Below the pieces are notes generated by a model. That model made no database searches, was not told where the DNA came from, and was given only the letters and a program-made list of their open reading frames with translations. 64,000 nt of DNA, taken from assembly GCA_963843955.1 (NCBI GenBank), contig CAWJMK010000018.1, positions 648,445-712,444 on the forward strand, read 5' to 3'. The position numbers and the translations under genes are program-made. Positions 2,269-25,605 of this stretch are shown in pieces (position 1 is the first letter of the stretch; each line of letters opens with the position of its first letter). This stretch comes from an uncultured Actinomycetota bacterium (GTDB lineage Bacteria > Actinomycetota > Actinomycetes > Streptosporangiales > Streptosporangiaceae).

Positions 2269-2461
2269 CGTGCCCCTCCTGTCCGGGCCGTCGGGGTCTG
2301 GCGTCTAGCCTATGGTCCGCTCCGCGCATGCCGCTGGCCGCGGTCGGGAGGGCCCGGTACCTATGCCGTGTAGGGGCGGGTTACCGGCTAGGCTTAGTGC
2401 GGCTTTCTCGGCTTCGTTCCCCGCTCTTTGCGGCCGGCGGTACGGGCCGGGACAGCCGAAG

Positions 2462-2538
2462 GCCCCGATAGCTCAGGCGGATAGAGCGACTGCCTCCTAA
2501 GCAGTAGGCCGCAGGTTCGAGTCCTGCTCGGGGCGCCA
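2462..2538 (+). tRNA. tRNA-Arg (anticodon CCT), CCA encoded
   Basis: Acceptor gccccga/tcggggc, D arm gctc-aggcggata-gagc, anticodon stem actgc/gcagt with loop ctCCTaa, T arm gcagg-ttcgagt-cctgc, discriminator g plus cca. Confidence 0.95.
2494..2538 (+). repeat. attL core (45 bp, part of the functional tRNA)
   Basis: ctcctaagcagtaggccgcaggttcgagtcctgctcggggcgcca is identical to 10054-10098. Confidence 0.9.
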
Positions 2539-2539
2539 C

Positions 2540-3742
2540 TTAAAATCCCAGTTCAGGTGGATCACGGGAGCTGGTGAGCCGATCTTCGGGCCCATCAGGC
2601 TGTCCGTCTCGTGCCACATACGTGCCACAGGTTTCTCCGGTGAGGTCCCGTCGGGCTCGCTCGGATACTGCCTCGGCCAGGGTTCGCTGACGGTCGTCGC
2701 TCGAGTGCAGATAGATGAGCGCCGCCCGGCTGCTGGCGTGGCCCATACGTTCCATCAGCTCGCGGAGGTTGGCTCCGGCCTCGGCCACTAAGTGGTTGCC
2801 GGCGTGGCGGAGGTCGTGGAAGTGGACGCCGTCCAGCCCGGTGGCAGCGAGCGCCGGTGCCCAGGTAGCGCGGCGGAAGTTGCTGTGCCGGAGCAGCTGG
2901 CCGCGCGGCGAGGTGAAGACGAGCGCGTCGACGCCCGGAGTTGTCTGAGTGTCGAGGTGGTGCTTTATCTCAGCTACGACGGTGCCGGGCAGGATGACGC
3001 GGCGCTTGCCTGCTGCGGTCTTCGGCGGTGCGAAGAACGGGGCCTGGCCGCGAGCCTCAGTGAGCTGACGGCTGATACGGACGGTGGCGGTGGCGGTATC
3101 GATGTCGCGGCGGCGCAGCGCGACGAGCTCGCCCCAGCGCAGGCCGCCGAAGCAAGCGAGCAGGATCATGGCGCGGTAGCGGGGACCGGTGGCGTCGGCG
3201 AGCTTGTAGACCTGGCCTATGGTCAGCAGAGGCCGTTCGGGTGACTGCTCGGTGCCGGCGCCCTTGACCCGGCATGGGTTGCGGCGGATCAGGCTGTCCT
3301 CGATGGCGGTCGCGAGGATGGATTTGAGCAGCCGGTAGGCCTTGGCCGTGGTGACTGGGCTGACGCCCTCATCGAGCAGATCGGCACGCCAGCGGCGCAC
3401 GTCGGCCTCCGTGATGCTGCCGATGGTGGTGAAACCAGGCGCGATGTGACGGCGGAGCAGGTACCGGTAGAGCTGGATCGTCTTGGGCCGGAGGCCAGGC
3501 CGCTCGGCGATCCAGGCGTCGGCGTAATCGGTGAGGGGGACGCGGCCGGCCTCCGGATCGATCCAATCGTCCTTGAGTAGCTCGGCCTCGGTCAGCGCGA
3601 GCCAGCGAGCACCATCGGTCTTGCGAACGAAGGTGCTAGGCGCGCTCACCAGCAGGCCGTCAGGACCGCGGTAGCGAGCTTGCCAGCGACCCGAGGGGAG
3701 ACGGCGGAGGGAGCCGAAGCTGCGTGTCTTCCGGCCGGCCAT
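2540..3742 (-). CDS. int: Tyrosine recombinase / phage-type integrase
   Basis: N-terminal SLRRLPSGRWQARYRGPDG, C-terminal ...FHDLRHAGNHL...HASSRAALIYLH (R..HxxR..Y catalytic pattern). The stop lies 2 nt from the tRNA end. Confidence 0.95.
   Translation of the reverse strand: MAGRKTRSFGSLRRLPSGRWQARYRGPDGLLVSAPSTFVRKTDGARWLALTEAELLKDDWIDPEAGRVPLTDYADAWIAERPGLRPKTIQLYRYLLRRHIAPGFTTIGSITEADVRRWRADLLDEGVSPVTTAKAYRLLKSILATAIEDSLIRRNPCRVKGAGTEQSPERPLLTIGQVYKLADATGPRYRAMILLACFGGLRWGELVALRRRDIDTATATVRISRQLTEARGQAPFFAPPKTAAGKRRVILPGTVVAEIKHHLDTQTTPGVDALVFTSPRGQLLRHSNFRRATWAPALAATGLDGVHFHDLRHAGNHLVAEAGANLRELMERMGHASSRAALIYLHSSDDRQRTLAEAVSERARRDLTGETCGTYVARDGQPDGPEDRLTSSRDPPELGF
2612..2627 (+). repeat. 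16-nt arm repeat tgccacatacgtgcca (left arm, inside the int 3' end)
   Basis: Identical 16-mer at 9942-9957 in the same orientation. Candidate integrase arm-type site. Confidence 0.5.
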
Positions 3743-3743
3743 G

Positions 3744-3965
3744 TCAGCTTGCCCTCCGGCGCCGGTGCGCCCAGGCGGTTACCGGCTGGACGGTGCCGGC
3801 CGCGATGTACTCGGCTAACGCAGACTCGGGGATTCGCACGTGCCGGCCGACGCGGACGAACCGGATCTTGCGCTCGGCGATGAGGCGGCGAGCGAAGCTC
3901 GGAGACGTGCCGAGTAACTCGGCGACCTGGTCGACGGTGAGCAGCGGGTCCGGCTTGGCGGCCAT
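3744..3965 (-). CDS. xis: Excisionase-family helix-turn-helix protein
   Basis: LLTVDQVAELLGTSPSFARRLIAERKIRFVRVGRHVRIPESALAEYI. Sits immediately upstream of int (1-nt gap). Start taken at the internal ATG 3965. Confidence 0.85.
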   Translation of the reverse strand: MAAKPDPLLTVDQVAELLGTSPSFARRLIAERKIRFVRVGRHVRIPESALAEYIAAGTVQPVTAWAHRRRRAS

Positions 3966-3970
3966 GGCAG

Positions 3971-5437
3971 TTACTCCGTTCGGGCAAGTGGTGATGGGAC
4001 GAGCAGCTCGGGCTCGTCTTGAGCCGGGATGAGGATTCGCGGATCGCGCCGGTTGAGAGCGGTCGCGGCGGCGCGTTCGGCCGCCCACTGCTCGGTGATC
4101 TCGGGGACGCGCAGTCGCGTGAATGGGTCGGTGCCGGTGGTCAGGGTGGCGACGGCGGTGCCGATCCCCGCCGGTGTCTCGCGCAGCAGAGTCGGGCTGT
4201 AGCCGGGGTACTCGCGGATGGCATCTCCGAGTGCTGCGACGCTGCTCTCGGTGGTCTTGAGCGCGAACGACACGGCCAGCCCGGAGTTATCGCGCAGGCT
4301 GGTCGGGATCGAGTCGCCGGTGGTCTTCTGCGTGGCCAGGATGGTCAGGCAGAGGACGGATCGGCCTTTGCGGATCAGCTCACCCACTAGTGCGATGCAC
4401 CTGCGGGCGAGGCCTTCGAGCGTGCGGTCGCCTTTGTGCTGGGCGAGGTCGAGGTAGGTCTGGCACTCGTCGATGACTGTCACCAGCAGCGGAAGATCTG
4501 CGGTTGGCCCGTTGGCGTTCCAGGCGTTGCGCTGCCCGCACAGTTCGGTGACCGTGCGGAGGCGGCGGCGCATCTCGGCGTGCGCGTCCTCCAGGACATC
4601 GAGGGCGTCGGCGAGTTGGTCGCCGCAGTGCCGCCAGGCTCGGTCATGCCAGGGTTCCTGGTCGCCGCCGTTCTTCCCGTCGAGCAAGGCGAATTGCGCT
4701 GCCGGTGTCGCGGTCAGCTGGCACAGCCACGATGCGATCAGCGAGGTCTTGCCGTAGCCGGGCAGGCCGGACACGCAGATCCCGGTCAGGCCGCGCAGCG
4801 GCAGGTATCGGTCGGCACCGAAGTCGTCGCGGCCGACGTAGAGCACGTCCGGGTGGTGCGGGGTGTATGTGCCGGGCGGGCACAGCTCCGGGCCGAACGG
4901 CTGGGCGAGCGGATCGGTGCGCAGCGCGCGGACTATCAGGCGGCCCGGCTGCACCTGGGTGACGCCGACGCGGACGGACCGCCAGTAATCCGCGACGTGG
5001 GCGGCTTGCTTCTCTACCTCTTTGCGGCCGGTGCGCGGCGCGGTCTTCACGGTGCACTGCCAGCCGTAGTCGGTGAGCCGCCACCGGCGGGCGCGTGGGT
5101 AATGGATCTTCCCGAGCCGTTCTGCCAGTTCGATGCCGAGCAGCGACGCCAGCAGCCAGCCGGTGATCGAGAGCAGCACCAGCACCAGGACCCGTGACTC
5201 GGCCGCTGCCCTGTTCTTGGCAGCAAGCTCCGGCTGTGCGAGCCCGGTGCAACGGCACAGCCAGTGCCAGCGGTGCCGGGCCCGGATCATGCCGAGGTAG
5301 TGACGGCGGGCCGCGGGCGGCGCGGCTGCGAACCGGATCAGGTCAGCGGTCGGCCGGTACAGCAGGACAGCCGCGACGAGCGCCGGGATGTCATGCCACG
5401 GATCGGTGAGCCATAAGACAGCGGGAAGGATGAGCAC
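3971..5437 (-). CDS. FtsK/SpoIIIE-family DNA translocase (TraSA/TraB-like conjugal transfer protein)
   Basis: Walker A GLPGYGKTS, Walker B LLVTVIDECQ, N-terminal TM segments. GTG at 5437 is preceded by GGAGG with a 6-nt spacer. The 650-aa track ORF is over-extended. Confidence 0.85.
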   Translation of the reverse strand: MLILPAVLWLTDPWHDIPALVAAVLLYRPTADLIRFAAAPPAARRHYLGMIRARHRWHWLCRCTGLAQPELAAKNRAAAESRVLVLVLLSITGWLLASLLGIELAERLGKIHYPRARRWRLTDYGWQCTVKTAPRTGRKEVEKQAAHVADYWRSVRVGVTQVQPGRLIVRALRTDPLAQPFGPELCPPGTYTPHHPDVLYVGRDDFGADRYLPLRGLTGICVSGLPGYGKTSLIASWLCQLTATPAAQFALLDGKNGGDQEPWHDRAWRHCGDQLADALDVLEDAHAEMRRRLRTVTELCGQRNAWNANGPTADLPLLVTVIDECQTYLDLAQHKGDRTLEGLARRCIALVGELIRKGRSVLCLTILATQKTTGDSIPTSLRDNSGLAVSFALKTTESSVAALGDAIREYPGYSPTLLRETPAGIGTAVATLTTGTDPFTRLRVPEITEQWAAERAAATALNRRDPRILIPAQDEPELLVPSPLARTE

Positions 5438-5508
5438 GGCTGGCCTCCACGGGTGGAGAGCCCGGCCAGGCCAGGATGCCGCGACCTGGCCGGGCGGCTG
5501 AACAAGAT

Positions 5509-5907
5509 CTAGGAGGCCTGGTCGGCCTTGGCCTGGCGGGGCTGGTGGGCCTGGTGCACGTTGGCGGCCTGGTACCAGGGGCGGCCGCCGCGTATCCCGC
5601 GGCCGTTCTCGCGAGCTTCGGGCACAGAGAAGCCGACGCGCATCTTGTCGAACACGATCGGGGAGCCCGGCGTGATCGACGTGCACGGATCGGTGGCGGG
5701 CCCGGTGACGGTGACGGCGATGACGTCGCTGACCGGCTTCATGCCGGGCTCGGCGTGGTAGGTGACGGCGGCCTGGACGTCCCACTTGCGTTCGCCGCGC
5801 GCGCTGATGTCCTGCTCGGTGCTGCCGAACTTGAGCTTCGGGCCGCTGGCCATGAGTAAGACGGCTTGAAAGGTCGCGGTCGTGTCGACGGTGAGTGTGC
5901 CTGGCAT
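5509..5907 (-). CDS. Hypothetical protein, first gene of the orf-tra-xis-int string
   Basis: 132-aa ORF co-oriented with and just upstream of tra, with sensible codon usage. No motif recognised. Confidence 0.55.
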   Translation of the reverse strand: MPGTLTVDTTATFQAVLLMASGPKLKFGSTEQDISARGERKWDVQAAVTYHAEPGMKPVSDVIAVTVTGPATDPCTSITPGSPIVFDKMRVGFSVPEARENGRGIRGGRPWYQAANVHQAHQPRQAKADQAS

Positions 5908-5980
5908 GGAAGCCGCCCTTCATCGGATTGGATCGACCTGAGTACTCAGCTCAATCACTGATATAGGCAGATCGTAAATC

Positions 5981-6016
5981 TGACTATCTATGGAGTCAAC
6001 AGCTTCGGCAAGCTGT
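5981..6016. promoter_or_regulatory. Two adjacent palindromes in the divergent promoter region between orf132 and the GntR-HD gene
   Basis: TGACT-N8-AGTCA (5981-5998) and ACAGCTT-cggc-AAGCTGT (5999-6016), in an AT-richer intergenic stretch. Confidence 0.4.
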
Positions 6017-6039
6017 CTAGGCAAGTAGCATCAGCAGGT

Positions 6040-6915
6040 ATGCAGGCCATCGACCCGCAAGATCCCCGCCGGCCGAACGTGCAGATCGCCGCGTCAATCC
6101 GTGCCGCGATCCTGAGCGGGGAGCTCGAGCCCGGAGCCCAACTCCCCTCGGGCGAGGAGCTGGCGAAGTTCTTCGGCGTCACCCGGGTCACGGTCGGGAA
6201 CGCGATCCGCACCCTGCGGGAAGAGGGCTTCGTCCGCAGTAAAACCGGCAGCGGCGTGTACGTCCGCGATCAGGCCAGCCTCCCGGTGCCGGGCGGGTCC
6301 GATCACCCGCTGGCCGGAGTCGCGTCGTTCCTGTTCGAGATGGGCCACCTCAAGCGCGTCCCGCGGTCCGGCTGGCTGCTACTCGGCGTGCCGCAGCCGG
6401 AGACCATCGCCGAGCACAGCTTCCGCGTCGGCATGGTTGGCATGGCGCTGGCAGCGATCGAAAGTGCGGACGTTGGACGCACCGCTGCGCTGTGTTTGCT
6501 TCATGACGCACACGAGACCCGGATCGGCGACGTTCCCTCCGTCGGCCGCGCCTATGTCACCACCGCGGCGCCGGAAGCAGTCTCAAGCCATCAGACGGCG
6601 GGCATGCCAGACGCCGCCGCCAAAGCCTTCCAGGAACTGACCGCGGAGTTCGAGGCCGGCCAGACGATCGAGGCCCAGGTTGCTCGAGATGCCGACAAGC
6701 TCGAGACCTTGCTCCAGGCCGTCGAGTACCAGGCGCAAGGCCATGACACCAGCGCATGGCAGGAAACCTCGATCGCCGCACTGCGCACGGATGCGGCGAA
6801 GCAGCTCGCCCAGGCCATCACCGCCACCGACCCACAATGGTGGTCGGCCTTCGCCGCCTCCTACCGCGAACTGCGCGCCAGCGCCCAGGGGCGTGCCCGC
6901 AACCTTCACAGCTGA
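6040..6915 (+). CDS. GntR-family wHTH fused to a YfbR/HDDC2-type HD-domain phosphohydrolase
   Basis: N-terminus: IRAAILSGELEPGAQLPSGEELAKFFGVTRVTVGNAIRTLREEGFV (GntR HTH). C-terminus: LKRVPRSGW...ETIAEHSFRVGMV...LLHDAHETRIGDVP...DADKLE (HD 5'-nucleotidase-like). Confidence 0.85.
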   Translation: MQAIDPQDPRRPNVQIAASIRAAILSGELEPGAQLPSGEELAKFFGVTRVTVGNAIRTLREEGFVRSKTGSGVYVRDQASLPVPGGSDHPLAGVASFLFEMGHLKRVPRSGWLLLGVPQPETIAEHSFRVGMVGMALAAIESADVGRTAALCLLHDAHETRIGDVPSVGRAYVTTAAPEAVSSHQTAGMPDAAAKAFQELTAEFEAGQTIEAQVARDADKLETLLQAVEYQAQGHDTSAWQETSIAALRTDAAKQLAQAITATDPQWWSAFAASYRELRASAQGRARNLHS

Positions 6916-7397
6916 GGGGTGACTCGAAGCCTCCGCCGCCGTACCAAGATCCATATCAACAGCGTGAGTACTGCCTCGGCGGACAGGGCAATCATGTTGC
7001 AGGTGAAGAAGAATTTGGCTTGCTCTGGCGTCTGTAGTGCGCCCGGATAGTCTGCTGAGGCGTTGTGGTCCACGATCAGGCTCTGAATTGCGACGACCAT
7101 CGACGCGATACATCCGGCGACAATCGCTATGGCGAGCCATTTAGCGGACTGCCGGACGAGACCGACGGCTGCCTCGATGAATACGAGTGCTAGCAAGCAC
7201 CAGAGGCTGAGAGGGATGCTGCCGGCCTGGGAGCACGTGCCGTCCCATCCGCATCCGCCGTCCCGCACGTCGTAGTACCCTGCCCACTCCATGCCAATTT
7301 CGAGCACCGCAAATAGCTGTAGGACCAGCGCGACTCCGGCCGCGCACGTTATGCCTGCGACAGCCACCCACGGTTTGCGTTGCCCCTGTTCGCCCAC
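6906..7397 (-). CDS. Small integral membrane protein (about 4 TM) with a Cys-containing loop
   Basis: Hydrophobic segments VAVAGITCAAGVALVLQLFAV, LSLWCLLALVFIEAAVGLV, LAIAIVAGCIASMVVAI and IALSAEAVLTLLIWILV. GC is lower than in neighbours. Confidence 0.55.
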   Translation of the reverse strand: MGEQGQRKPWVAVAGITCAAGVALVLQLFAVLEIGMEWAGYYDVRDGGCGWDGTCSQAGSIPLSLWCLLALVFIEAAVGLVRQSAKWLAIAIVAGCIASMVVAIQSLIVDHNASADYPGALQTPEQAKFFFTCNMIALSAEAVLTLLIWILVRRRRLRVTPQL

Positions 7398-7706
7398 CTT
7401 GTCATGTTACGTCGGCAGGGAGGAAGGTCCAGGAGATTTGCGCGGCTTTACGGTCGTCCCATCGCAAGAACTGTCGGACTTTTATTCACTACGGTCGATT
7501 CCGAGGCCTTTTGATTTCGACGGTCTAGCAACTGTCGCGGGGCAACCCGAGGTCGCCGCGCTCCCCGACGAAGAGCGTGCCGAGACTCTAGAGGTGGCAG
7601 GCCGCAACGACGACGAGGATCGAGGGGTCTAGTCGGCAGCTTCGCGGCCTGATTTGCGTCTGGCGTTTGCTTGGGCCGGACGATTTCTTTGATCTGGCCC
7701 GTTGAT

Positions 7707-7724
7707 GCGGGTCCCTCCGGGTCC
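7707..7724. repeat. Two direct sCGGGTCC repeats, the second containing TCCGGGTC (complement of GACCCGGA)
   Basis: gcgggtccctccgggtcc read in the intergenic region downstream of rep. Resembles the 8-bp TraB recognition repeats of Streptomyces plasmids. Confidence 0.3.
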
Positions 7725-7771
7725 GGTATAGCGATCAGGCGGCGAATTTATTGTTGCCGTAGCATCTGGCG

Positions 7772-9082
7772 CTACTCGTGAGGCAGGACAGAGCCGACCG
7801 ATGCCGTGGGGAGCGGTCGGCGATCAGTAACGCATAGCAGATGGACGTCATAGACTAGGCCGTCGATGGCGTCCCGGCCGCCGTGCTCCGCACTGACGAG
7901 CAGAGCGAGCTCAAGGCCTGCAGTGCGCATTCGTGACCAGGTCGAGAGCTGGATGACAGCAAGCAACTCACCGCCAACGTCCAGAGACGCCATTTCTTCA
8001 TCGGTGTGCTGATGCGCGGCCGCGGGGGCAAGCACGATCGACCGCAGACCGCGGGACCAGCGGACGGCCGCGAGGCTGCGGGCGGCGCGGGCGTATTCGT
8101 GCCACAGGTTCCGGTCGCGGGAGTCGCCGGTCTGGTAGTAGTCGGCCAGGATCTGGAACGGTGTGCGGTTGCCTGTTCGGCTGGTCTTGAGGTCGCCGCG
8201 GGCCATTTCTTCGGCAGGCGTCCACTCGCCGGTCTTGGCCACGTAGGCACCGGCAGCGGTGGCGGAGACGTTCGGGTCGATGCGGACGGCGTGCAGCTGG
8301 TCCGGCGCGCGAAGGCCGTGTTCGAGGCAGGCGGCGGTGAGCCGCACGTGGATGTGGCCGTGCAGCTGTGCGATGGCGGCAGCGTCGAGGTCCTGGTCGT
8401 GGATCAGCAGGACGTGGTAGTGAGGGTGCCAGCCGTTGACGTCACCCCAGGTGAACTCCAGCGCGATGATGTGCCCGGCGATCCCGAGCTTGCGCCTGAG
8501 GCGCTGCCAGGCGGCGCCTTGGGTGACGTGCTTCCACGCATCCCGCTGCACATCGACAAGCTTCGACAGGCCGTCCCCGAGGTCGTGCGGGATCGTGATC
8601 GTCACCAGGCTCGCTGCGTGCCCCTGCGCCTCCCAGGTGGTGAGGGCGTCGCGGAGTTCGGCGGCGCGGCGATGATGGATCTTGGCCGAGCAGACGGGGC
8701 ACAGCCACACGTTGCCGCAGGTCTCCAGGCCGCTGTAGTACGCGGAGCCGTCCTTGATCCGGATCTCGACCTGCGAGCCGACGGGCACGGCGCCGCAGTT
8801 GCGCTGCCGCTGCGGAGTGTCGGGGTCGGCGGCCGCGAGGGCCCGCAGGTTCATCCGCGCTCCGCGGCGCCATCCGGCGGGATCGTCGCAGGCCAGCAGA
8901 GGGTGGTTCGAAACTTTGCGTCTATACCGAGACAGTGCGTTCGCGGGAGCGCGAGCAGGAGGAGATGTGGGGAAGGATGATCGGCGGCCTTCTGCGCTTC
9001 GCGCCTGGCCGCCTCGGGGCGCGCACAGTTCGCGCGCCCTGGTGGTGCGGGAGTCGTGGATGGGCTGTGTCGTGGTTGCCAT
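7772..9082 (-). CDS. Rolling-circle replication initiator (RepSA-like, HUH)
   Basis: ETCGNVWLCPVCSAKI and GWHPHYHVLL (HUH-like) motifs. An alternative start MNLRAL lies at 8854. Confidence 0.85.
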   Translation of the reverse strand: MATTTQPIHDSRTTRARELCAPRGGQARSAEGRRSSFPTSPPARAPANALSRYRRKVSNHPLLACDDPAGWRRGARMNLRALAAADPDTPQRQRNCGAVPVGSQVEIRIKDGSAYYSGLETCGNVWLCPVCSAKIHHRRAAELRDALTTWEAQGHAASLVTITIPHDLGDGLSKLVDVQRDAWKHVTQGAAWQRLRRKLGIAGHIIALEFTWGDVNGWHPHYHVLLIHDQDLDAAAIAQLHGHIHVRLTAACLEHGLRAPDQLHAVRIDPNVSATAAGAYVAKTGEWTPAEEMARGDLKTSRTGNRTPFQILADYYQTGDSRDRNLWHEYARAARSLAAVRWSRGLRSIVLAPAAAHQHTDEEMASLDVGGELLAVIQLSTWSRMRTAGLELALLVSAEHGGRDAIDGLVYDVHLLCVTDRRPLPTASVGSVLPHE

Positions 9083-9272
9083 GAGCCGGCCTCCGCAGAC
9101 GAGCTGGAATCCCAGGCCCGCCGGTGATGCGGCGGGCCTGCCGTGCTTTCTTGGGCCGGGATGGCAACCGGCAGCGCGAAGTGCGCGTGCAGCTAGCCGG
9201 GCTGGCTAGCAGAGCCGAAGAGAAGGAAGCCGCGGCCCGGTCGGCACCGGGCCGTTGCCGGATGAGGGGTCG

Positions 9273-9710
9273 TCAGTTTTCTGGCTCGCCAGGCGTCGCA
9301 TGCGGCTGGCTCAGGAGGTGGGCAAGGTCCTGCTCGCTCAAGTCGTGCAGGTGCAGATGGAGGTGCTGTTCGGTCGCGGGTACCCGGTGGCGGCCGGATC
9401 CGCGGTCATCCTGGCGGCTGATCGCCGCCCGACCATGGCCGGAGGTGAGCGCATGCTGAGTCGCTGGGGTCGCCCGGATGGTGCGGCTTGCCGGCGGGCG
9501 GGATTTCAACCGCAGATGCATGACGGCTGCGGTGGTCAGGCCAGCGATGGTGAGTCCGGCGATGATGCCAGCGGCGATCGCCAGAGTAGTCAGCGTGTGC
9601 GCGACCGCGGTCTTGCCGGCGGCGATGATCACGACGCCGGCGACGATCACGGCAAGCAGAAGGGCGCCGCTGCTGCGGGGCGGCGGGCAGTGGGTCGAGC
9701 ATCGCGGCAT
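9273..9710 (-). CDS. Small membrane protein upstream of rep
   Basis: Two hydrophobic helices (ALLLAVIVAGVVIIAAG, LAIAAGIIAGLTIAGL), co-oriented with rep. Start uncertain (9710 or 9743). Confidence 0.4.
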   Translation of the reverse strand: MPRCSTHCPPPRSSGALLLAVIVAGVVIIAAGKTAVAHTLTTLAIAAGIIAGLTIAGLTTAAVMHLRLKSRPPASRTIRATPATQHALTSGHGRAAISRQDDRGSGRHRVPATEQHLHLHLHDLSEQDLAHLLSQPHATPGEPEN

Positions 9711-9941
9711 GGCGAATCCTCTCCAGGGTGGTGGTGTCAGCAAGGCCTCGAGCCGGGCTGCGCGGCTGAGGGTATGGCCGTGCCCTCGCCGTCAAGGATC
9801 TTCGACCGCTACGCGGCGCCTTCGGCGTCCTTGACCGCGAGACTCTGGCACGGCATCGGCAGAAGGGGCGGCAGGCAAGGAGCCTGCCTCAAAGGACGCC
9901 GCGCAGCCCTCTGTAGCGAGCGGTTGAAGCCGGTCCTGGCA

Positions 9942-9957
9942 TGCCACATACGTGCCA
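9942..9957 (+). repeat. 16-nt arm repeat tgccacatacgtgcca (right arm)
   Basis: Identical to 2612-2627. Lies about 100 nt left of the attR core. Confidence 0.5.
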
Positions 9958-10053
9958 TACACTCGGCCGAAGTCGGCTCGCTAGGAGCTCATCGAAAGCA
10001 GGGTGGCACCGCCGGAGCAGGCACTTTACTGAGCCTGACGGTCTACGGGCTTG

Positions 10054-10098
10054 CTCCTAAGCAGTAGGCCGCAGGTTCGAGTCCTGCTCGGGGCGCCA
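10054..10098 (+). repeat. attR core (45-bp tRNA-Arg 3' fragment)
   Basis: 45/45 identity to 2494-2538. The flanks diverge on both sides. Confidence 0.9.
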
Positions 10099-10107
10099 TA
10101 CCGGCAC

Positions 10108-10168
10108 GTGGAGAATATTTTTCGCCATTCCGTTCAGGGCTATGTAAACTGCCTGCGAGCAATCGCTC
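10108..10168 (+). repeat. AT-rich left-arm repeat (copy 1)
   Basis: Alignable with 12958-13017, including the identical 22-mer aactgcctgcgagcaatcgctc (10147-10168 and 12996-13017). Confidence 0.75.
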
Positions 10169-10226
10169 GTTACGGACGAATCATATTGCTTGAACTTTGG
10201 ATATTGTTCGAACAGCCGACGGCCGA

Positions 10227-10245
10227 GAGCCAAACTGAGAGCCAA
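10227..10245 (+). repeat. GAGCCAA-N5-GAGCCAA motif (isolated copy near the left end of island 2)
   Basis: The same bipartite motif opens the right arms at 12788, 17066 and 22129. Confidence 0.6.
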
Positions 10246-10851
10246 AGCACCTGAACGGCCTGAACGCCGGGCCCCTTCGAACTCGCCGGAAGAGCGCCAG
10301 GGCGAGATACAGCAGAAGTCGGGCCGCCAGCGCGCCGAGCACCGGACGAGCAGCCAGTCGCAGTCACCAGCGCCTCCCGGCGGGCTGGTTCGCTACAACA
10401 ACTCGCGGCTGCCAGCGACCATGCGCGAAGCCTGCGGGCCGCGAGCAGTGAACACTCGACTCGCGGCAGATCCGGACCTCGTCGCGCACTGGCGGCAAGC
10501 GCATAAACATGCAATCAGCTGCCTCGCGAGCGGGCGCTGCCGTGCTGATCATCGGGCGCGAGTCGTGGTGAATAGGTGCCGCGGGGTGGTGTAAACACAC
10601 TATAGGTGAAACGCGGGCGCCTCCGGTTACGCCGCCGGCAGCGAGTGCTGCACACCGTCGCGTCCTGAGATCGAGTATGCCGAAGCTATTCGACCTCTGG
10701 CGCAAAGCCACCGCCAGTTTTCTCCGTCCAGCAGGCGAGGTTGCCGCGGGTGGTCGGGGTGCTGGGGTGGTCGGGGCCGAGCACATGGCCTGGTGATAGT
10801 TGGGGCGCTGCGGGCCCCGCAACGAAATCAATACTAAAGTACACTGATTAA

Positions 10852-11653
10852 ATGGCACGAGCACAGCTGGTGCTGCCGCTGCGGGAGGCAGCTGACCTCC
10901 TCGGCGTGCACTACCAGACTGCCTATGGCTGGGTCCGCCAGGGCCTGCTGCCTGCTACGAAGGCCGCCGCGCTACCAGGTCAACGTCGCCGACGTTGATG
11001 CGCTTGGCGCTCGGCGCGCCGCCGGTACGCCGCCTCGCCCCGAGGTGCGGGTTCGCAACTGGCAGCCGCAGGCTGACCGGTTCTATGACGCGATCGTGGC
11101 CGGCGAGGAGCGGCTGGCCCAGACGCGGCTGGAGCGGCTCGCCGCGGGCGTGCCGTTCATCGAGTTCTGTGAACGGGTTGTCGCTCCGGCGCTGCGCCGG
11201 GTCGGCGACGACTGGGCAGCCGGTGACGTTACGATCGCCGTCGAGCACCGGGCCAGTGCGATTTGTGAGCGCCTGATCGCGCCGCTCGCGGCCCGGCAGC
11301 CCAGGGGCCGCCCGCGTGGAGTCGCCGTGACAGCGACCCCGCCTGGGGAGCGGCATGGGCTGCCCGCGCTGATGGCGGCGGGCAGTCTCCGCGAGGACCA
11401 CTGGCTCGTCCAGCACCTGGGTACCGACCTGCCCGCCAACGAGGTCGGCCGGCTAGCCCACGACGTCGCCGCTCGCCTGGTAGTGCTGTCGGCCACAACA
11501 GCGGAAGCGGCACAACGGGGCGCGGCGGCGGCAGCTCAGCTCGCCGAGGCTTACCCTGGCCTGCTGGTGCTGGCCGGTCGCCCTGGCGAAAGCCTGTACG
11601 ACCTGCGCGAAATCACCCGGATGCATGCTGCCGGCCCCGGCGGCGCCAGCTGA
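10852..11653 (+). pseudogene. Excisionase-type HTH plus cobalamin (B12)-binding-domain regulator, frameshifted
   Basis: Frame 1 from ATG 10852 gives LREAADLLGVHYQTAYGWVRQGLLPATKA, then shifts near 10962-10973 into the 10925 ORF frame (YQVNVADVDAL...). The C-terminus (VAVTATPPGERHGLPALMAA...VVLSATT) is B12-binding-domain-like. Confidence 0.65.
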
Positions 11654-11979
11654 GAACGACCGGCGGCAGGGTCGACTTCGTCGTCGCGGCGTTCTCTGGC
11701 GGCACGGTCGACTTCGGCAAGGTTCTGGACTGGTCTCACCCACCCAGATTCAGCTGGGATGGAACGTCCTCAGTGGGCGTAACGCTGCCGCCAGGTCGAA
11801 CTTGAATATGCGGTAGCTAATTCACGCTTTTGCGAGACTCGATGCCGCGAGTGAGCATGACGCTCGGTGCATAAGCATGCGCGCTGACAACGCGCTGTAT
11901 TCGGCATGAGCGTATGAGCCGACGCTCACGTTCGTGGGGGTGATGGGGGCGCCGGGGTCGGCTGTGCGTGCCGGGCCAG

Positions 11980-12282
11980 TCAGGCTACGAGTTCGCGGAG
12001 TCGCTGGACGTCGGCGGAGATTTTCTCGATGGTGCTCTGCACGGTCTCGTCCTTGTGCGCGTTGAGGGCGGAGAGGATCCATCCGCGGATGAGGCTGGAC
12101 GGCGGCACGTCCAGGCGGCCGGCTAGGCGCTCGATCTCGGCCAGGTCCTCGGGGGACAGGCGGGTGGCGACGGTGACCGACTTATTCGGTCGCGTGGAGA
12201 CGGCACCGGGCGGCATCGGCTGGTCGGCGGTGGCATCGGCTTCGGAGGCGATCTGCTCGACTACCTGCTTGGGGTCACTCAT
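11980..12282 (-). CDS. Ribbon-helix-helix (CopG/BrnA-like) antitoxin
   Basis: KSVTVATRLSPEDLAEIERLAGRLDVPPSSLIRGWILSAL is an RHH pattern. Its ATG overlaps the stop of the upstream toxin-like ORF. Confidence 0.8.
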   Translation of the reverse strand: MSDPKQVVEQIASEADATADQPMPPGAVSTRPNKSVTVATRLSPEDLAEIERLAGRLDVPPSSLIRGWILSALNAHKDETVQSTIEKISADVQRLRELVA

Positions 12283-12537
12283 GGCGCTGGGTCCCTTCAG
12301 CGTAGATCCGGCGGTCGGTGCTATTCGCGCGCCAGCCGTTGGCGCCCCACCATGATCCTGGCTTGTCCTCGCGCCGGACGAGGATGACCACCAGGACCGC
12401 GGCTGCAGTCGGCGAGTAGCCGATCATGCGGGCACTCTGGCCTGACGTGCTCTTGGGTCCGGGTCAAACAGCAGCGCGTCAGGATCGGCGAGTGCCTCGT
12501 TAGCCGCCTGCACCGTGATCCGGTGCCCGGTCCGCAT
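12275..12537 (-). pseudogene. BrnT-like toxin gene, apparent frameshift
   Basis: MRTGHRITVQAANEALADPDALLFDPDP continues in another frame as KSTSGQSARMIGYSPTAAAVLVVILVRREDKPGSWWGANGWRANSTDRRIY. Toxin-first order with an RHH partner. The family assignment rests on architecture only. Confidence 0.5.
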
Positions 12538-12583
12538 GTGATCCTTGCTGTGCTGCCGGTCGACGTCTAACCCATGTTGGCCA

Positions 12584-12599
12584 GTTTACATTTGTAAAC
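12584..12599. promoter_or_regulatory. Perfect palindrome GTTTACA-TT-TGTAAAC about 50 nt upstream of the toxin start
   Basis: Read directly. AT-rich inverted repeat in the TA promoter region, a candidate RHH operator. Confidence 0.4.
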
Positions 12600-12787
12600 A
12601 GATCTTGTCCAGCCCATCTCGAGCACGTAGACCCAACTCGGCTGGCCCCCGGTGCTCGGTCGCCGGGAGGCCGATTGCTGCTGCCGGAACTCGGAGCGTT
12701 GGTCAAGCTCGGCAGGTCAAACTGCCTGGCAGACGGGGAGACTCGCCCGGACTGTGGCGCTTCTTAGCGGAGCTAACGATCTTCGGA

Positions 12788-12954
12788 GAGCCAAACTGGG
12801 AGCCAACGTCAGCAGGAGCCGGGCGTCGTCAGGCGTCGTCAGGCGATTGTCGTTGCAGGTCAGCGCGACGTAGGGCTACGGTGGGCGTTGTCTGGCCTGG
12901 TTCGGGTTTGCCTCCTAAGCAGTAGGCCGCAGGTTCGAGTCCTGCTCGGGGCGC
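12788..12954 (+). repeat. Conserved right arm (12788-12908) plus tRNA-Arg 3' fragment (12909-12954, 46/46)
   Basis: The arm aligns with 17066-17187, 22129-22249 and 24609-24717. The tRNA part is identical to 2491-2536. Confidence 0.9.
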
Positions 12955-18965: not shown

Positions 18966-19886
18966 TCAGATCGCCGTTTCGAGGTCCGTCACGCGAAATC
19001 GATCAGCCACGCTGGCGAGACTGTCAAGGGAGCGAGTGATGGTGCCCAGGTCGGCCATCGGGATTCCTACGACGAGTCGTTGTGCTCCCATACTCCGGTA
19101 TAGTTCCGCCTTCTCGAGGAGGACGTCCATCGCTGCGTTGTCCTCGAAGTACCAGGGGTTCCTTGGTGTCCTGGATACTCCGAGGCTTACCGTCAGGAGT
19201 GGCTCAGGTCGTCCCGATTCGGCTGCCATTGCTCGCAACTTCCGCAGCCTTGTGGGGAGCTCCGGGTTGTCGAGCGGGTACCAGCCGTCGGCTAGGTCCA
19301 CGAGCTGGCGGAGTTGCCATTCGAAGCCAGTCGCGCCCAGCAGGATCGGAGGGTGCGGCTTTTGAACCGGCTTGGGCCAGACCCAAGACTCGCTGAACGA
19401 CCCGAATTTGCCTTCGTGAGCAACTGTTTCTTCGGTCCACAGTCGCTTTAGCACAGCCAGCTTCTCTGCGAAGACCTCTCGGCGCGAGTCCCACTGCACA
19501 CCGTTGTTCTCAGCTTCGGGCTTGTTCCAGCCGTAACCGACTCCGAACTCGAGACGGCCTCCTGAGACCATGTCAAGGGTGGCGGCGGCCTTGGCAAGAT
19601 GGAACGAGTTGTGTTCAGCTACCAGGATGATCCCGGTGCCGAACCGGATGGTGCGTGTGACGGCGGCGGCGGCCGCAAACGACACGAACAGGTCCGGGAA
19701 ACGTTGGTAGAACTCTCGACCGAGCTCGCCGGTTTCTGCGAACACAGTGTTTACCGGGATGTGGCTATGCTCGCCTTGGAAAATCGATTCCAACCCCCTT
19801 TCCTCGGCGAGGACAGAGACCTCGGTGATCGACGGGGTGGTGTCGTTAAGAGCAGTGACAATCCCTATGTGCATGTTCGGGAACAT
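18966..19886 (-). CDS. Luciferase-like (LLM class, probably F420-dependent) oxidoreductase
   Basis: ESIFQGEHSHIP...MVSGGRLEFGVGYGWN...PPILLGATG. Confidence 0.85.
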   Translation of the reverse strand: MFPNMHIGIVTALNDTTPSITEVSVLAEERGLESIFQGEHSHIPVNTVFAETGELGREFYQRFPDLFVSFAAAAAVTRTIRFGTGIILVAEHNSFHLAKAAATLDMVSGGRLEFGVGYGWNKPEAENNGVQWDSRREVFAEKLAVLKRLWTEETVAHEGKFGSFSESWVWPKPVQKPHPPILLGATGFEWQLRQLVDLADGWYPLDNPELPTRLRKLRAMAAESGRPEPLLTVSLGVSRTPRNPWYFEDNAAMDVLLEKAELYRSMGAQRLVVGIPMADLGTITRSLDSLASVADRFRVTDLETAI

Positions 19887-20376
19887 ACGTTATTTGGACG
19901 CAGTCCGCCATGCTCCGGCCCTGGACGTCGGTGTTCGCGCACGGCCACCTGCAGATCAGCCACCTGTTTCCGACGGCGACGAGGGCACCGGCCGCATCGA
20001 CTGGCCAGAGGCGAGCCGGGGCGACGCGCTGTGCAGACCTCGCTAGCCTGACGAACTTGCATGAGGAGCACCGCCCCGAGCTCCTCGCCCGTAACGGCAC
20101 CGATGTTGACATCGACGTGATCCGCGGCTGGTCGCTGCGAAGCCTGCGGAAGTCCCGCTAGCTGATCGAGCACGGCTTCGGCCCGTCCTCCCCCGGCGCC
20201 GAGTTCGCTGTGGTGAGAGCTCAGATGCGGCGGGGCTGACCAGGCGAGACGTTTGTGTGCTTGACAGCAACTAACCATTGCGCCATCATATATCGACCGT
20301 ATGGTTCAATACAGTCTACTTCGAAACAAGCAACCGCTCGCAGGTCACCACCTGATCGGGCGCCCGGGAAGGTGAC

Positions 20377-21669
20377 ATGAAGTCCCACATCACGAGGTCG
20401 TTAAGCGGTCTCTGCCTGTCCGGTACTTTGGCACCATCAGCTCGACGTCGCGCAGCCGCTGTTGTCGCCTGTGTCACGCTCTTTGCTCTCGGAGCCTCGG
20501 CGTGCGCGTCCAGTAGTAACGGCGGTTCCAGTACGACGGCTGCCGGCGCCAAATCGGCGACGATCAAGATCGCCTATTTGGGCGATCAGTCCGGGGCTCT
20601 GGCGACAACGTTCGGGCCCGAGCTGAGCGGCGTCCATGCGTTCGTGGACTACTACAATGCACACGGGGGACTCTCCGGACACAGGCTCGTATTGTCTGTC
20701 TACGACGACGAGAGCAGCTCAAGCGCGGTGCTTTCGAATGCCCGGCTGGCTGTCCAGCAAGGCGCGGACGTCATCGTTACCCAGGATCCGTATTTCGACA
20801 GCGCTGCTCCGTATCTGCAGTCGACCGGTATCCCCGTTTTTGGTGCTGGCATCACCGCGGGATTTTACGGCAAAGATAAGACGACATTCTTTTCTCCCGT
20901 GGGCGATTGGATCGACTACACCAGCGATGCCGGCATGAAGTTCTTTGTGCAAAAAGGTCTCAAGAAGATTGCCGTGGTGTCGGACGCGAATCCTGGCAAC
21001 ATGATCGCAGCCCATGAGGTAGCGAAGGCCGTCCCCTTGGTCGGCGGAACTCTGGTCTACTCCAATTACTCGGTCGATGACACCGACACCGCAAGCCTGT
21101 TGGCTTTGGCGCAACGGTTGAAGGCCGTCGGCGCTCAAGCGATGCTGGCGAACCTGTACGGCACGGCTGCGCCCGAATTGCAGTCTGACCTGAACCAGGC
21201 CGGCGCGCACGCTGTTGTGCTGAGCGACAGCACCGGTTTCGATCCGGCAGTCACTAAGCAGTTCGGCACGACGATCAATGGCCTCCTCGGAGAACAGAAC
21301 GGAGCCACACCTTTGAATTCCGCCGTCCCGCCGATAAAGACGTACCTCGCAGCGATGAAGCAGTACGAGCCATCGGGCGACCCGTACAACGCCTCGAACC
21401 TTTTCGGATGGTACGCCATGACACTGTTCGGTGGGGCCGTGCAGCGCCTCGGAACCAAGGTTCCCACCTCCGCGAACATTGTCGCCGCTGGGAACAGCAT
21501 AAAAAACTTCACCGCCGACGGCATGCTCCAACCGATCTCGTTTCCCGCGATGCATGACACGCTGGCACCTTGCCTGTCCTTCGCGCAAGTCACCAACGGT
21601 CAATTCAAAATAGTGTCGGGCTCAGGGACCAACTTCCTCCTCTGCGGCACACCGGTGGGGAACAATTAG
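20377..21669 (+). CDS. ABC-transporter substrate-binding lipoprotein (branched-chain amino-acid/LivJ-like fold)
   Basis: Signal peptide with lipobox ...LGASAC, then IKIAYLGDQSGALATTFG. No permease or ATPase gene is adjacent. GC is lower than in the flanks. Confidence 0.8.
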   Translation: MKSHITRSLSGLCLSGTLAPSARRRAAAVVACVTLFALGASACASSSNGGSSTTAAGAKSATIKIAYLGDQSGALATTFGPELSGVHAFVDYYNAHGGLSGHRLVLSVYDDESSSSAVLSNARLAVQQGADVIVTQDPYFDSAAPYLQSTGIPVFGAGITAGFYGKDKTTFFSPVGDWIDYTSDAGMKFFVQKGLKKIAVVSDANPGNMIAAHEVAKAVPLVGGTLVYSNYSVDDTDTASLLALAQRLKAVGAQAMLANLYGTAAPELQSDLNQAGAHAVVLSDSTGFDPAVTKQFGTTINGLLGEQNGATPLNSAVPPIKTYLAAMKQYEPSGDPYNASNLFGWYAMTLFGGAVQRLGTKVPTSANIVAAGNSIKNFTADGMLQPISFPAMHDTLAPCLSFAQVTNGQFKIVSGSGTNFLLCGTPVGNN

Positions 21670-22128
21670 GTAGACCTCATTCGGGATGTTGACCTGTCTC
21701 AACAGACTGCCGTCGGCCGGTACTGCATGGACCGACAAGACGATGCCGGCGAATCGCAGCCCGAAGCGGTTGAGGTGGTCAGCGTGGCGACATCAGTCGC
21801 TACCGCTGAGAGCGAGGAGTCTGACGAGCCCAGCGCCAGGGCACACGGATGATCCAGACGGAGATGTCACGCAGACCACTAAGTTCGCCGCGCGCCCCGC
21901 CGCGAGATCGTCATGCAGGGCGTCATCGACGATGCACCGCTTGAGCGGCAGGCACAGGCCAGCTCGTCGAAACCTTCGTCTTCGCCGAACGCCGACATCG
22001 ATTCATACGGAACGCCGGATTCGGACCATTCATAACGCCGCTTGCCGGCCTTACAGTTCGCCGCCTGAAGACGGGCGACTGCGGCGGGGACGGGCGTGAG
22101 GATGCTCCTGCCGTAACAAGACGTGTGA

Positions 22129-24792: not shown

Positions 24793-25605
24793 CTAAAACC
24801 GCCAGCCGCGCAGCAACCGTGCCACATGTCCGCGGCCGCGACCGGGAACCAGGCGCACCTGGCGAATCGACCGCCAGGTCTTGCCGGTGAGCAGGAATTC
24901 CCCTGGGGTGGCCGTCGACGCGATGCCGTTCATGATCGCCTCCGGGTCGCGCCCATGCCGCTCGGCCGCCGCTCCTGCGTCCACGATGTCGGTCACCTCA
25001 CCGGAGGCGAGGTCGATCCCGGCCAGGCAGCTGGTCCCAGCGACGTTGGCCCAGACTAGGCCTTCGGCCCAGGTGAGATCGTTGAGCCACCGGACCGGCG
25101 CCCCCTGACAACGGACGTGCACGATCTCACGCTGTTCGAGTGTGTCCGGATCCCTGCGTACCAGCTCGCCGGTCCCGTTGCTCGTCACAACCTCGCGGGT
25201 AATCAGTTCACTGGTCGGTCCCTGCGCGACGACCGCGCACATGCCCCATCCTTCGCGGTTGAAGCGAACCTTGTCCCGCAGCGTCAGGGAAACGGCGTCC
25301 CAACGGAACGCGACCAACTCCTTCCAGGTGAGCTGCCAGATGCTGTCTCCTACTCGGCAAATGCCCTCCGCGAAGAACTCGGGTGCCAGCTTCACCCGCG
25401 CGTCCATCGTTTCGCTTCGGTCCCCGGAGGTTGCGAATCGGCCGCCGGATTTGCCGTCAGCGAGTGCATACCGCCGCAACTCGGACTGTCTGTAAATCCC
25501 CACGGACTCCCAGACGGTTCCGCCTTCGCTGAGCAGCCCCTGGGTAAACCCCCTCTCAGGGTGAGCCACCCGGCGTACCACTCGCACCCCGTAAGTCCGC
25601 ACCAT
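24793..25605 (-). CDS. Glutamine cyclotransferase (beta-propeller type)
   Basis: FTQGLLSEGGTVWESVGIYRQSELRRY...FAEGICRVGDSIWQLTWKE...GWGMC...LNDLTWAEGLVWANV. Confidence 0.8.
   Translation of the reverse strand: MVRTYGVRVVRRVAHPERGFTQGLLSEGGTVWESVGIYRQSELRRYALADGKSGGRFATSGDRSETMDARVKLAPEFFAEGICRVGDSIWQLTWKELVAFRWDAVSLTLRDKVRFNREGWGMCAVVAQGPTSELITREVVTSNGTGELVRRDPDTLEQREIVHVRCQGAPVRWLNDLTWAEGLVWANVAGTSCLAGIDLASGEVTDIVDAGAAAERHGRDPEAIMNGIASTATPGEFLLTGKTWRSIRQVRLVPGRGRGHVARLLRGWRF

Follow-up and report, generated by a model that had tools for sequence, protein, structure and literature searches.

The locus described here raises the question of what a regulator of the GntR family could do on an integrative element when it is joined in one chain to a nucleotide phosphohydrolase. 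The gene concerned (GntR-HD, positions 6040..6915, plus strand) lies in a stretch of 64,000 nucleotides from an uncultured soil actinomycete of the Streptosporangiaceae (contig CAWJMK010000018.1), called the window in the following, and it belongs to a 7.6-kb actinomycete integrative and conjugative element (AICE). According to the extracts of the papers on which the cited statements here and below are based, Kor proteins of AICEs belong to the GntR repressors and occupy two promoters, that of their own gene and the divergent one (PMC2440964, PMC8584621), KorSA is such a GntR repressor with homologues on all AICEs, and the trigger of AICE transfer is unknown (PMC2440964, PMC3218068). The original prediction had read GntR-HD as a Kor-plus-Pif module in one polypeptide, with an HD nucleotidase standing in the place of the NUDIX hydrolase Pif. 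The reading that we favour, with moderate confidence, is that GntR-HD would be a Kor-type AICE repressor, the HD domain of which dimerises and both binds and hydrolyses a ligand similar to a nucleoside monophosphate, and that this ligand would set the affinity for DNA.

Domain architecture and active site

The open reading frame (ORF) at 6040-6915 on the plus strand encodes a protein of 291 aa, with a G+C content of 0.81 at third codon positions (GC3) versus 0.51 at second positions (GC2). Its start at 6040 is backed by the N-terminus MQ(A/P)IDP, which is kept across 32 homologs, and also by the conserved operator and the -10-like box directly 5' of it. The predicted fusion of a GntR winged helix-turn-helix (wHTH) with an HD phosphohydrolase was confirmed by profile searches, in which both domains scored above the Pfam cut-offs: GntR (PF00392) was found at residues 14-75 with an E-value of 2.5e-18 and 65.9 bits (cut-off 27), HD_3 (PF13023) at residues 102-244 with 3.7e-29 and 102.2 bits (cut-off 22.5), and the YfbR-like family (PF12917) at residues 97-236 with 1.7e-12. 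On the DNA the wHTH occupies 6079-6264 (residues 14-75), followed by a linker of approximately residues 76-90 and by the HD_3 domain at approximately 6307-6849 (residues ~90-270).

The predicted metal ligands, H126, H155, D156 and D219, form the H..HD..D set of the 5'-deoxynucleotidases, which is intact as the original prediction had claimed. In a pairwise alignment to E. coli YfbR (K-12 record) they correspond to H33, H68-D69 and D137, and in the same alignment E159 stands against E72, D164 against D77, R109 against R18 and W112 against W19, YfbR residues which we take, in keeping with the PDB titles of E72A-substrate complexes, to act in catalysis and substrate binding. None of the 32 aligned homologs, which are 49-97% identical to the query, has a substitution at H126, H155, D156, E159, D164 or D219, and R109 and W112 are conserved in at least 90% of them. 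Thus the full set of YfbR active-site residues is present in GntR-HD, with the H...HD...D residues lying within a matching HD fold.

An AlphaFold2 model made from a 32-sequence alignment reached a mean predicted local distance difference test score (pLDDT) of 80.2 and a predicted template modelling score (pTM) of 0.70, low confidence being confined to the linker (79-84) and one loop (163-174). The folds of the model match the two domains: with Foldseek the C-terminal part was paired with 1xx7, HDDC2 and YfbR (TMt 0.73-0.83; 0.71-0.83 when all HD proteins matched are included), and the N-terminal part with the DNA-binding domain of YvoA (TMt 0.90, rmsd 1.3). By sequence, the nearest solved proteins to the C-terminal part are AF1432 (E 3e-23 over query residues 90-268), PF0395 and PH0347, followed by human HDDC2, yeast YGL101W and E. 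coli YfbR, while those nearest to the N-terminal part are repressors of the HutC type such as YvoA/NagR. The Pfam score and the superposition on the YvoA DNA-binding domain place the protein in the GntR family, and NCBIfam points to PhnF and HutC for its DNA-binding domain. No UTRA match was found in the protein with Pfam, so the C-terminal part lacks the mark of the HutC subfamily and only the DNA-binding domain is HutC-like.

Predicted dimer

GntR-HD is predicted to homodimerise through its HD domain. In a two-copy complex prediction the score was 0.82 versus 0.00 for the best control (the mark set for this score is reached by 20 of 30 proteins whose solved structure is a same-chain pair and by 1 of 23 whose structure is a single chain), the contacts agreed to at least 86% between runs, and the pLDDT of the partner was at least 83. 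The confident interface residues all fall between 87 and 268, a range made up of the linker and the HD domain. The model supports, rather than shows, this binding; a dimer is what the palindromic operators described below would need. The PDB entries of HD_3 relatives contain 2 to 6 chains each, and presumably these proteins were solved as dimers.

Operators in the divergent control region

Between GntR-HD and the genes facing it there is a control region of 132 bp (5908..6039, no strand assigned), characterised by its sequence, a pattern search, a promoter scan and conservation across loci. The sole sigma70-like promoter found is on the minus strand (TTGACT at 5999-5994 and TACGAT at 5976-5971 with a 17-nt spacer) and points at orfA, the first gene of the divergent operon. 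Three palindromic sites are present: O1 (CTGAGTACTCAG, 5938-5949) with 2 mismatches, O2 (CTGACTATCTAT, 5980-5991) with 3 mismatches, which lies within the spacer of the minus-strand promoter, and O3 (CTGTCTAGGCAA, 6013-6024), which abuts the -10-like TAGCAT at 6026-6031, 8 nt before the ATG.

The conservation of these sites was followed in 28 loci, namely the window and 27 related ones. When the 160 nt 5' of the start were aligned by eye, the palindrome CTGCCTAGGCAG was found to be followed by TAGCAT and, 8 nt on, by the ATG. A CTGNCTAGNCAG site with at most one mismatch stands 13-18 nt 5' of the ATG in 22 of the 28 loci (in 14 of them it is exact), compared with a mean of 0.028 loci and a maximum of 1 in 500 shuffles. 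At up to two mismatches, CTGNCTAGNCAG sites occur at 2.07 per 200 nt versus 0.09 in shuffles, and they recur ~90, ~48 and ~14 nt from the ATG. The loci without the proximal site are L010, L015, L016, L021, L023 and L024, and two of them, L015 and L016, have, as judged by eye, a related palindrome centred on TTAA. The CTAG-centred palindrome presumably resembles the operators of the HutC type (the dre site), and this likeness agrees with the best matches of the GntR-HD DNA-binding domain.

Predicted operators in the spacers of two divergent promoters would correspond to the classical geometry of a repressor acting on itself and on the opposite operon; the conserved palindromes overlap both predicted promoters, as Kor binding would require, and a conserved palindromic operator of this kind speaks for a Kor-like repressor that regulates its own gene. 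Since the -10-like box is so close to the ATG, the mRNA of GntR-HD may be leaderless or nearly so. A regulon of this operator across the window was also sought and given up, the pattern with two or fewer mismatches being too degenerate (48 matches versus 28.8 expected), and nothing was defined beyond the control region.

The 7.6-kb element

The element is bounded by 46-nt tRNA-Arg direct repeats at 2491 and 10051 and has the sequence features of an AICE: an integrase, an excisionase and att repeats at a tRNA gene, an FtsK/SpoIIIE-type Tra and a Rep_1 initiator of its own. The prediction that the element is an AICE therefore holds, the int, xis and Rep genes being recognised by Pfam and NCBIfam and Tra by hhalign. 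As had also been proposed, GntR-HD is divergent to the transfer and excision operon, since orfA, tra, xis and int are all on the minus strand, and no other GntR match was found within the 7.6 kb.

The integration target is a tRNA-Arg(CCT) gene at 2462..2538 on the plus strand, found by ARAGORN, whose 3' part at 2491-2536 is the attL core repeat, as seen in the 46-nt repeat family and in an alignment of three copies. It is followed on the minus strand by a tyrosine integrase of 400 aa (int, 2540..3742), recognised by Phage_integrase (2.4e-18), Phage_int_SAM_3 and its GC3 phase, and by an excisionase (xis, 3744..4088, minus strand; HTH_17 in Pfam at 1.7e-15, TIGR01764 in NCBIfam at 4.1e-17). The ORF listed for xis has 114 aa; judged from the translation, the likely start is an ATG at ~3965, just 3' of the tra stop, which would give ~73 aa.

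Upstream in the same operon lies a divergent translocase of the FtsK/SpoIIIE type (tra, 3971..~5473, minus strand, ~500 aa, start uncertain), which was identified by its motifs, GC3 and hhalign. A Walker A (GLPGYGKTS) and a Walker B (LLVTVIDECQ) can be read in the translation. No Pfam family was matched by Tra above threshold, at E<=1 there were sub-threshold AAA matches only, and a PDB sequence search with Tra gave no match. When a profile of this protein and its relatives was aligned by hhalign to the Tra profile of four related loci (L007, L020, L017 and L039), the probability was 98.1% with E 1.1e-13 over 330 columns; three of the four rows in that target profile match FtsK_SpoIIIE, and the L039 row comes from an unpublished genome. 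A longer ORF listed at this place (3971-5923, 650 aa) overruns orfA, the GC3 phase switches at ~5400 in favour of orfA, and this ORF is an artefact of the high G+C content.

The divergent operon is headed by orfA (5509..5907, minus strand, 132 aa, GC3 0.91). Pfam yielded nothing for it even at E<=1. Its homologs stand beside the fusion in five related elements (L001, L002, L023, L027 and L032) with 52-95% identity; by its place it could be a positional analogue of pra. On the other side of GntR-HD, an ORF of 163 aa with hydrophobic stretches (6906..7397, minus strand) is an uncertain gene and possibly codes for a Spd-like membrane protein; GC3 is 0.70-0.77 over 6900-7260, and no Pfam family was matched by this ORF. 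A replication initiator of the rolling-circle type with 436 aa (7772..9082, minus strand) matches Rep_1 with 8.9e-10 and 38.9 bits, above the cut-off of 33.2, and has homologs in L001, L026, L027 and L032. The element ends with the attR core (10051..10096, plus strand), a second copy of the tRNA-Arg 3' end that is 96% identical in the repeat alignment.

A third copy of the att core, 100% identical, was found by ARAGORN and repeat alignment at 12909..12954 on the plus strand, within an 80-nt tRNA-Arg(CCT) call (12875-12954). It bounds a segment of ~2.8 kb beyond the AICE (10097-12954), which holds an ORF with a B12-binding domain (10925-11653), and the right flanks of the second and third att copies have a 25-nt repeat in common. 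The segment looks like a tandem accretion at the tRNA-Arg site or like a duplicated tRNA region. Elsewhere in the window the G+C content falls to 0.56-0.61 at 19000-22000 and 25000-27000 compared with ~0.68 in the remainder.

Four soil-metagenome runs of one study were compared with 2300-10300 and yielded short contigs, some of them identical, and no attL-attR or circular joint, a test that says nothing for or against the activity of the element. The loose contig ends at 2536 probably stem from tRNA-Arg genes of other organisms.

Proposed mechanism

In the favoured reading GntR-HD would be the Kor-type master repressor of the 7.6-kb AICE. Its HutC-like wHTH would bind, as a dimer, to CTGNCTAGNCAG palindromes in the 132-bp control region, with one operator inside the spacer of the probably leaderless GntR-HD promoter and another inside that of the orfA-tra-xis-int promoter, and operators at these two places imply repression of the gene itself as well as of the transfer and excision operon. 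The HD_3 domain, similar to YfbR and HDDC2 and presumably from the lineage of the AICE and plasmid mdp genes, would replace the usual UTRA effector domain. It would supply the dimer interface and may bind and hydrolyse a ligand resembling a (deoxy)nucleoside monophosphate; occupancy by this ligand would control DNA binding, and hydrolysis would reset the switch in the manner of a trigger enzyme. What was observed is the architecture, the intact active site, the AICE surroundings, the conservation of the operators and the linkage of HTH and HD genes; repression, the identity of the ligand and the allosteric coupling are the parts of the mechanism that we infer.

A more specific form of the proposal can be put forward tentatively, in which the HD domain would act as the signal receiver long sought in the control of AICE transfer. 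A (deoxy)nucleotide-like molecule at the metal site would free the repressor from CTGNCTAGNCAG, and its hydrolysis would reset the system. The molecule might report contact with a recipient, replication stress or the state of the nucleotide pool, so that the protein would work as a self-timing switch. In that case the NUDIX protein (Pif) and the HD proteins would act on one nucleotide, and the XRE-HD gene pairs and mdp-nud-xre clusters described in the next section would be versions of the same device made of two and three proteins, respectively.

Stand-alone relatives and the NUDIX question

When the family was clustered at 50%, few representatives remained, and most of the strong matches below them were stand-alone HD proteins of ~190 aa that are 40-50% identical to residues ~90-270 of GntR-HD. 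In an even sample of the class (401 genomes), the HD part alone was matched in 16 genomes besides those carrying the fusion. Among these 16 stand-alone HD_3 relatives (41-52% identity) an XRE gene is adjacent in four (L040, L042, L054 and L055), in three cases upstream on the same strand, overlapping or abutting the HD gene, and in one case divergent. One relative (L045) has a short GntR gene two genes upstream, two (L044 and L049) have a NUDIX gene within ~1 kb, and nine show no XRE, GntR or NUDIX neighbour in loci of 3.5 kb. The HD part alone is also carried by 55 plasmids, mostly of Streptomyces, and in both of the two annotated records opened an XRE/HTH gene lies 2-14 nt 5' of the HD gene. 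Such two-gene XRE(HTH)-HD operons (L065:5315-6645, L066:5012-6600, L040:371-2067, L054:336-2070 and L055:232-2067) are found on plasmids of Streptomyces and Saccharothrix and in actinomycete genomes, a widespread module with no function in the record annotations. The short GntR gene of L045 and the GntR gene that precedes the fusion in L021 were considered as the split DNA-binding domain of the fusion; at 39% and 48% identity, respectively, over 61-69 residues they are ordinary for GntR and not decisive.

HTH and HD genes are thus neighbours in many replicons and one polypeptide here, which is an argument of the Rosetta-stone type for their acting together. These arrangements argue that the HD protein works with a regulator, rather than as an independent Pif-like factor.

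The alternative closest to the original prediction is that the wHTH is the Kor repressor and that the HD domain, functionally separable from it, is a Pif-like enzyme of conjugal immunity which degrades a nucleotide signal wherever the cell harbours the element already, and so replaces the NUDIX protein. The published background gives this idea weight, because Pif cannot confer immunity without its NUDIX motif, and pSAM2 is held in the integrated state by KorSA and Pif jointly (PMC2440964). The fusion loci agree with it inasmuch as no NUDIX gene was found in either of the two AICEs of this genome, the Nudix box was found in none of 30 fusion loci (the same expression found it in 10 of 10 control NUDIX loci), whereas a NUDIX homologue is described as lacking from only 7 of 20 AICEs (PMC2440964), and the catalytic residues of the HD domain are invariant. 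On the other side, the published mdp-nud-xre cluster, which recurs on AICEs, has an HD phosphohydrolase and a NUDIX protein together (PMC2440964, PMC3218068), and two of the 16 stand-alone relatives lie near a NUDIX gene. From such co-occurrence of mdp and nud it follows that HD and NUDIX proteins are not simple alternatives. Neither pattern is reproduced at this locus, where GntR-HD and its element contain no NUDIX domain and the HD domain is fused to GntR instead of standing beside an XRE gene. In addition, the HD domain is the predicted dimer interface for operator binding, by which the two functions would not be cleanly separable, and in nine of the 30 loci no conjugation genes are visible against which immunity could be directed. 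A separable immunity enzyme is doubtful. From the one-polypeptide module as first conceived the domains, the intact motifs, the AICE and the divergent position are retained; the absence of the Nudix box from the fusion loci also agrees with elements that do without Pif, whereas a new substitute for NUDIX cannot be maintained, HD proteins being already known on AICEs alongside NUDIX.

Distribution and genomic context

In sequence space the architecture is by no means rare. A protein search gave 1321 proteins at E<=1e-3, and among the clusters listed the best 120, with identities of 74-98% and lengths of 267-315 aa, all have both PF00392 and PF13023; most of them come from metagenomes and are named as HD-superfamily hydrolases, sometimes with a second regulator label. 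The full-length fusion is present in two of the 401 genomes of the class sample, namely in the genome of the window, which has two copies, and in the unpublished G014, which also underlies the context of L039 and contributes a row each to the Tra profile and the tree. No plasmid among 72,556 records covers 80% or more of the protein, and no phage record matches it.

The genomic context was studied in 30 loci (the window, L001-L027, L032 and L039). They come from a peptide-pattern search that favours close relatives, most are from metagenome-assembled genomes (MAGs), genes were called by a GC3 heuristic, and the flanks extend at most 8 kb; neighbours were identified by Pfam scans of 221 ORFs, tblastn with the window proteins having detected neighbours in close relatives only. 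Sixteen of the 30 loci are AICE- or plasmid-like, their flanks showing an integrase, RepSA/Rep, FtsK-type Tra, DUF2637 or ParA (the window, L001, L002, L006, L007, L015-L017, L019-L021, L023, L026, L027, L032 and L039), L017 only through homology of its neighbours to L007 and L020, and L039 through the unpublished genome. Five loci are ambiguous (L012, L014, L018, L024 and L025), and nine carry no mobile gene in the ~-5.2/+4.2 kb scanned (L003, L004, L005, L008-L011, L013 and L022; the flanks of L003, L005 and L011 are short or one-sided). By these counts the family extends beyond recognisable mobile elements. The AICE copies are at different tRNAs (Arg, Val and Ala), and no tRNA was found in any chromosomal-looking locus. 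In the RepSA (pSAM2-type) elements L006, L015 and L016 the fusion has the same divergent position as in the window.

Several individual loci deserve mention. A second, related AICE lies ~650 kb away in the same genome (G000:C18:2202-6053, L032), with GntR-HD 69%, orfA 85%, Tra 72% and Rep 74% identical; the operator there reads CTGGCTAGCCAG, perhaps a sign that its specificity is different. The chromosome of Saccharopolyspora spinosa NRRL 18395 has two RepSA-type AICE copies with the fusion (L015 and L016), one of which adjoins tRNA-Ile/tRNA-Ala near gyrA. In a MAG (L026:6801-8153 and 8001-8778) an integrase ORF 85% identical to that of the window runs into the 5' end of GntR-HD, the match to which begins at residue 39, apparently a rearranged or deleted element without tra and orfA. 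In three chromosomal-looking loci the divergent partner is HATPase_c_2, similar to anti-sigma factors or kinases (L004:7323-7919, L008:7341-7844 and L011:2-316), and the operator architecture is kept.

In the tree of the family the AICE-borne copies fill deep lineages, and most chromosomal-looking copies are grouped with further AICE copies in one subgroup of 15 rows (support 81/91). On the tree the AICE label changes 4 times versus 9.2 in shuffles, the root being unsure on account of long outgroups. A single domestication of the chromosomal-looking copies was considered and set aside, as the tree, with its unsure root, needs at least four label changes. The regulator and its operator region remain 68-97% identical across loci despite differing divergent partners. 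We read the family as a portable cassette of repressor plus operator with its home in AICEs, some copies of which were left in, or recruited to, chromosomes; the reverse direction, from chromosome to AICE, is also conceivable.

The chromosomal-looking loci bring in another explanation, that GntR-HD is an autoregulated 5'-(deoxy)nucleotidase for house-cleaning or salvage, the wHTH of which tunes its own expression and which travels as AICE cargo with no role in transfer. The nine copies among ordinary chromosomal genes, the full set of YfbR residues, and the fact that the strongest and most conserved operator is at its own promoter are what would be expected of it. In the AICEs, however, no regulator other than Xis accompanies the fusion, which in every case faces the transfer and replication operon (the window, L001, L002, L006, L007, L015-17, L020, L023, L027, L032 and L039), further operator-like sites extend across the divergent promoter, and the AICE copies are on deep branches. 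Nor is an occurrence as sporadic as 2 genomes of 401 what a housekeeping gene would show. We consider this explanation unlikely.

Weighing of the evidence

It is similarly improbable that the HD domain is a catalytically silent scaffold which dimerises the wHTH, with structural metal binding and no control by a ligand. The predicted interface lies wholly in the HD domain, as such a scaffold would have it, and in abstracts of the GntR-family literature C-terminal domains are generally described as serving oligomerisation; in GntR-HD, however, invariance or near-invariance extends beyond the metal ligands to the counterparts of YfbR E72, D77, R18 and W19, for which a scaffold has no need. A defence or exclusion effector, in which the derepressed nucleotidase would deplete deoxynucleotide precursors and so block the replication of incoming phages or plasmids, would suit the mobile-element location, the nucleotide-directed enzyme family and the patchy distribution, but it is highly improbable given that no phage record was matched, that the domain is fused to a repressor which would be made constitutively at low level, and that monophosphate nucleotidases are weak depleters compared with known dNTPases.

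A Kor-type repressor governed by its HD domain has to be set against several observations that weigh on the other side. A working enzyme accounts for the invariance of the catalytic residues at least as well as a mere sensor does, and the repression and the control by a ligand are deduced from sequence. The context loci are biased to close relatives and their gene calls depend on a heuristic, while in the window itself O1 and O2 are degenerate, with 2 and 3 mismatches. The divergent partner varies, being of the orfA type in five loci, HATPase_c_2 in three, a small protein followed by an FtsK-type Tra in three, and others elsewhere, which together with the nine loci devoid of a mobile gene suggests a portable regulator rather than strictly an AICE Kor. 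The HD gene widely stands as a separate gene beside its regulator, so that allostery within one chain is not required. Finally, HD_3 relatives are multi-chain in the PDB, and the dimer prediction may have passed by likeness to solved structures.

Novelty and significance

The fusion was presumed not to have been characterised, and indeed no description of it was found in the literature searched, which has most subscription journals and supplements outside it, nor was any paper on GntR with YfbR found there. The papers on the GntR family that were listed in the search name no subfamily with an HD phosphohydrolase domain, and where HD and GntR genes of integrative and conjugative elements are mentioned in the sections found, they are treated separately. 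What is new is the union of a Kor-type AICE repressor and an AICE Mdp hydrolase in one chain, each kind being already known.

This uncharacterised and recurrent design may link the transfer of the element to a nucleotide signal. The ligand of the HD domain would be a candidate for the transfer signal of AICEs and offers a tractable route to it, and GntR-HD would add an HD-domain class to the GntR regulators, with a well-defined putative operator. Saccharopolyspora spinosa NRRL 18395, with its two copies, is a cultured host for such studies. Should the HD domain be only a housekeeping nucleotidase, the finding would shrink to a refinement of annotation.

Comparison with known systems

Among the AICE regulators, GntR-HD is most readily compared with KorSA of pSAM2 and its homologue SCO3932, which are likewise GntR winged-helix proteins encoded by AICEs and facing an operon for replication, transfer and excision. 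SCO3932 has two footprinted sites in its own and the divergent promoter region (PMC8584621), where GntR-HD has conserved palindromes as putative sites; the motif given there for SCO3932 is not the same as the operator CTGNCTAGNCAG. Their effector domain is of the UTRA/HutC kind, whereas that of GntR-HD is an HD_3 phosphohydrolase. KorSA, compared here by its description only, acts through pra, while the operon opposite GntR-HD appears to include tra, xis and int directly.

The HD part has its counterpart in Mdp, the HD hydrolase that is encoded on AICEs beside a regulator in the mdp-nud-xre clusters of pMEA100, pSE211, AICESco5349 and the Frankia AICEs (PMC2440964, PMC3218068), and the stand-alone HD_3 relatives with 41-52% identity show Mdp-like neighbourhoods. 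As far as the descriptions of Mdp, the sole basis of this comparison, allow, GntR-HD is different in being fused, in having GntR and not XRE as the regulator, and in the lack of a NUDIX gene. With Pif of pSAM2 it has in common that a nucleotide-directed hydrolase is associated with an AICE Kor regulator; the fold and motif are Nudix in Pif and HD in GntR-HD, which has no Nudix box.

The fold itself is common to YfbR, HDDC2, YGL101W, AF1432, PF0395, PH0347 and GntR-HD (TMt 0.71-0.83). With YfbR there is one-to-one correspondence of the metal ligands and of E72, D77, R18 and W19, and with AF1432 a C-terminal 'WW' motif is shared. These YfbR-type proteins are single-domain enzymes of ~170-215 aa, whereas GntR-HD has an N-terminal DNA-binding domain in addition. 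That an enzyme fold can be borrowed for regulation is exemplified by NrtR, a regulator with a Nudix fold. Within the GntR family, MocR/GabR with an aminotransferase fold and AraR with a LacI-type domain similarly combine the wHTH with a borrowed ligand-sensing domain (PMC5320631, PMC1950556), and compared with these proteins GntR-HD stands out by the retention of all catalytic residues in the domain that was borrowed.

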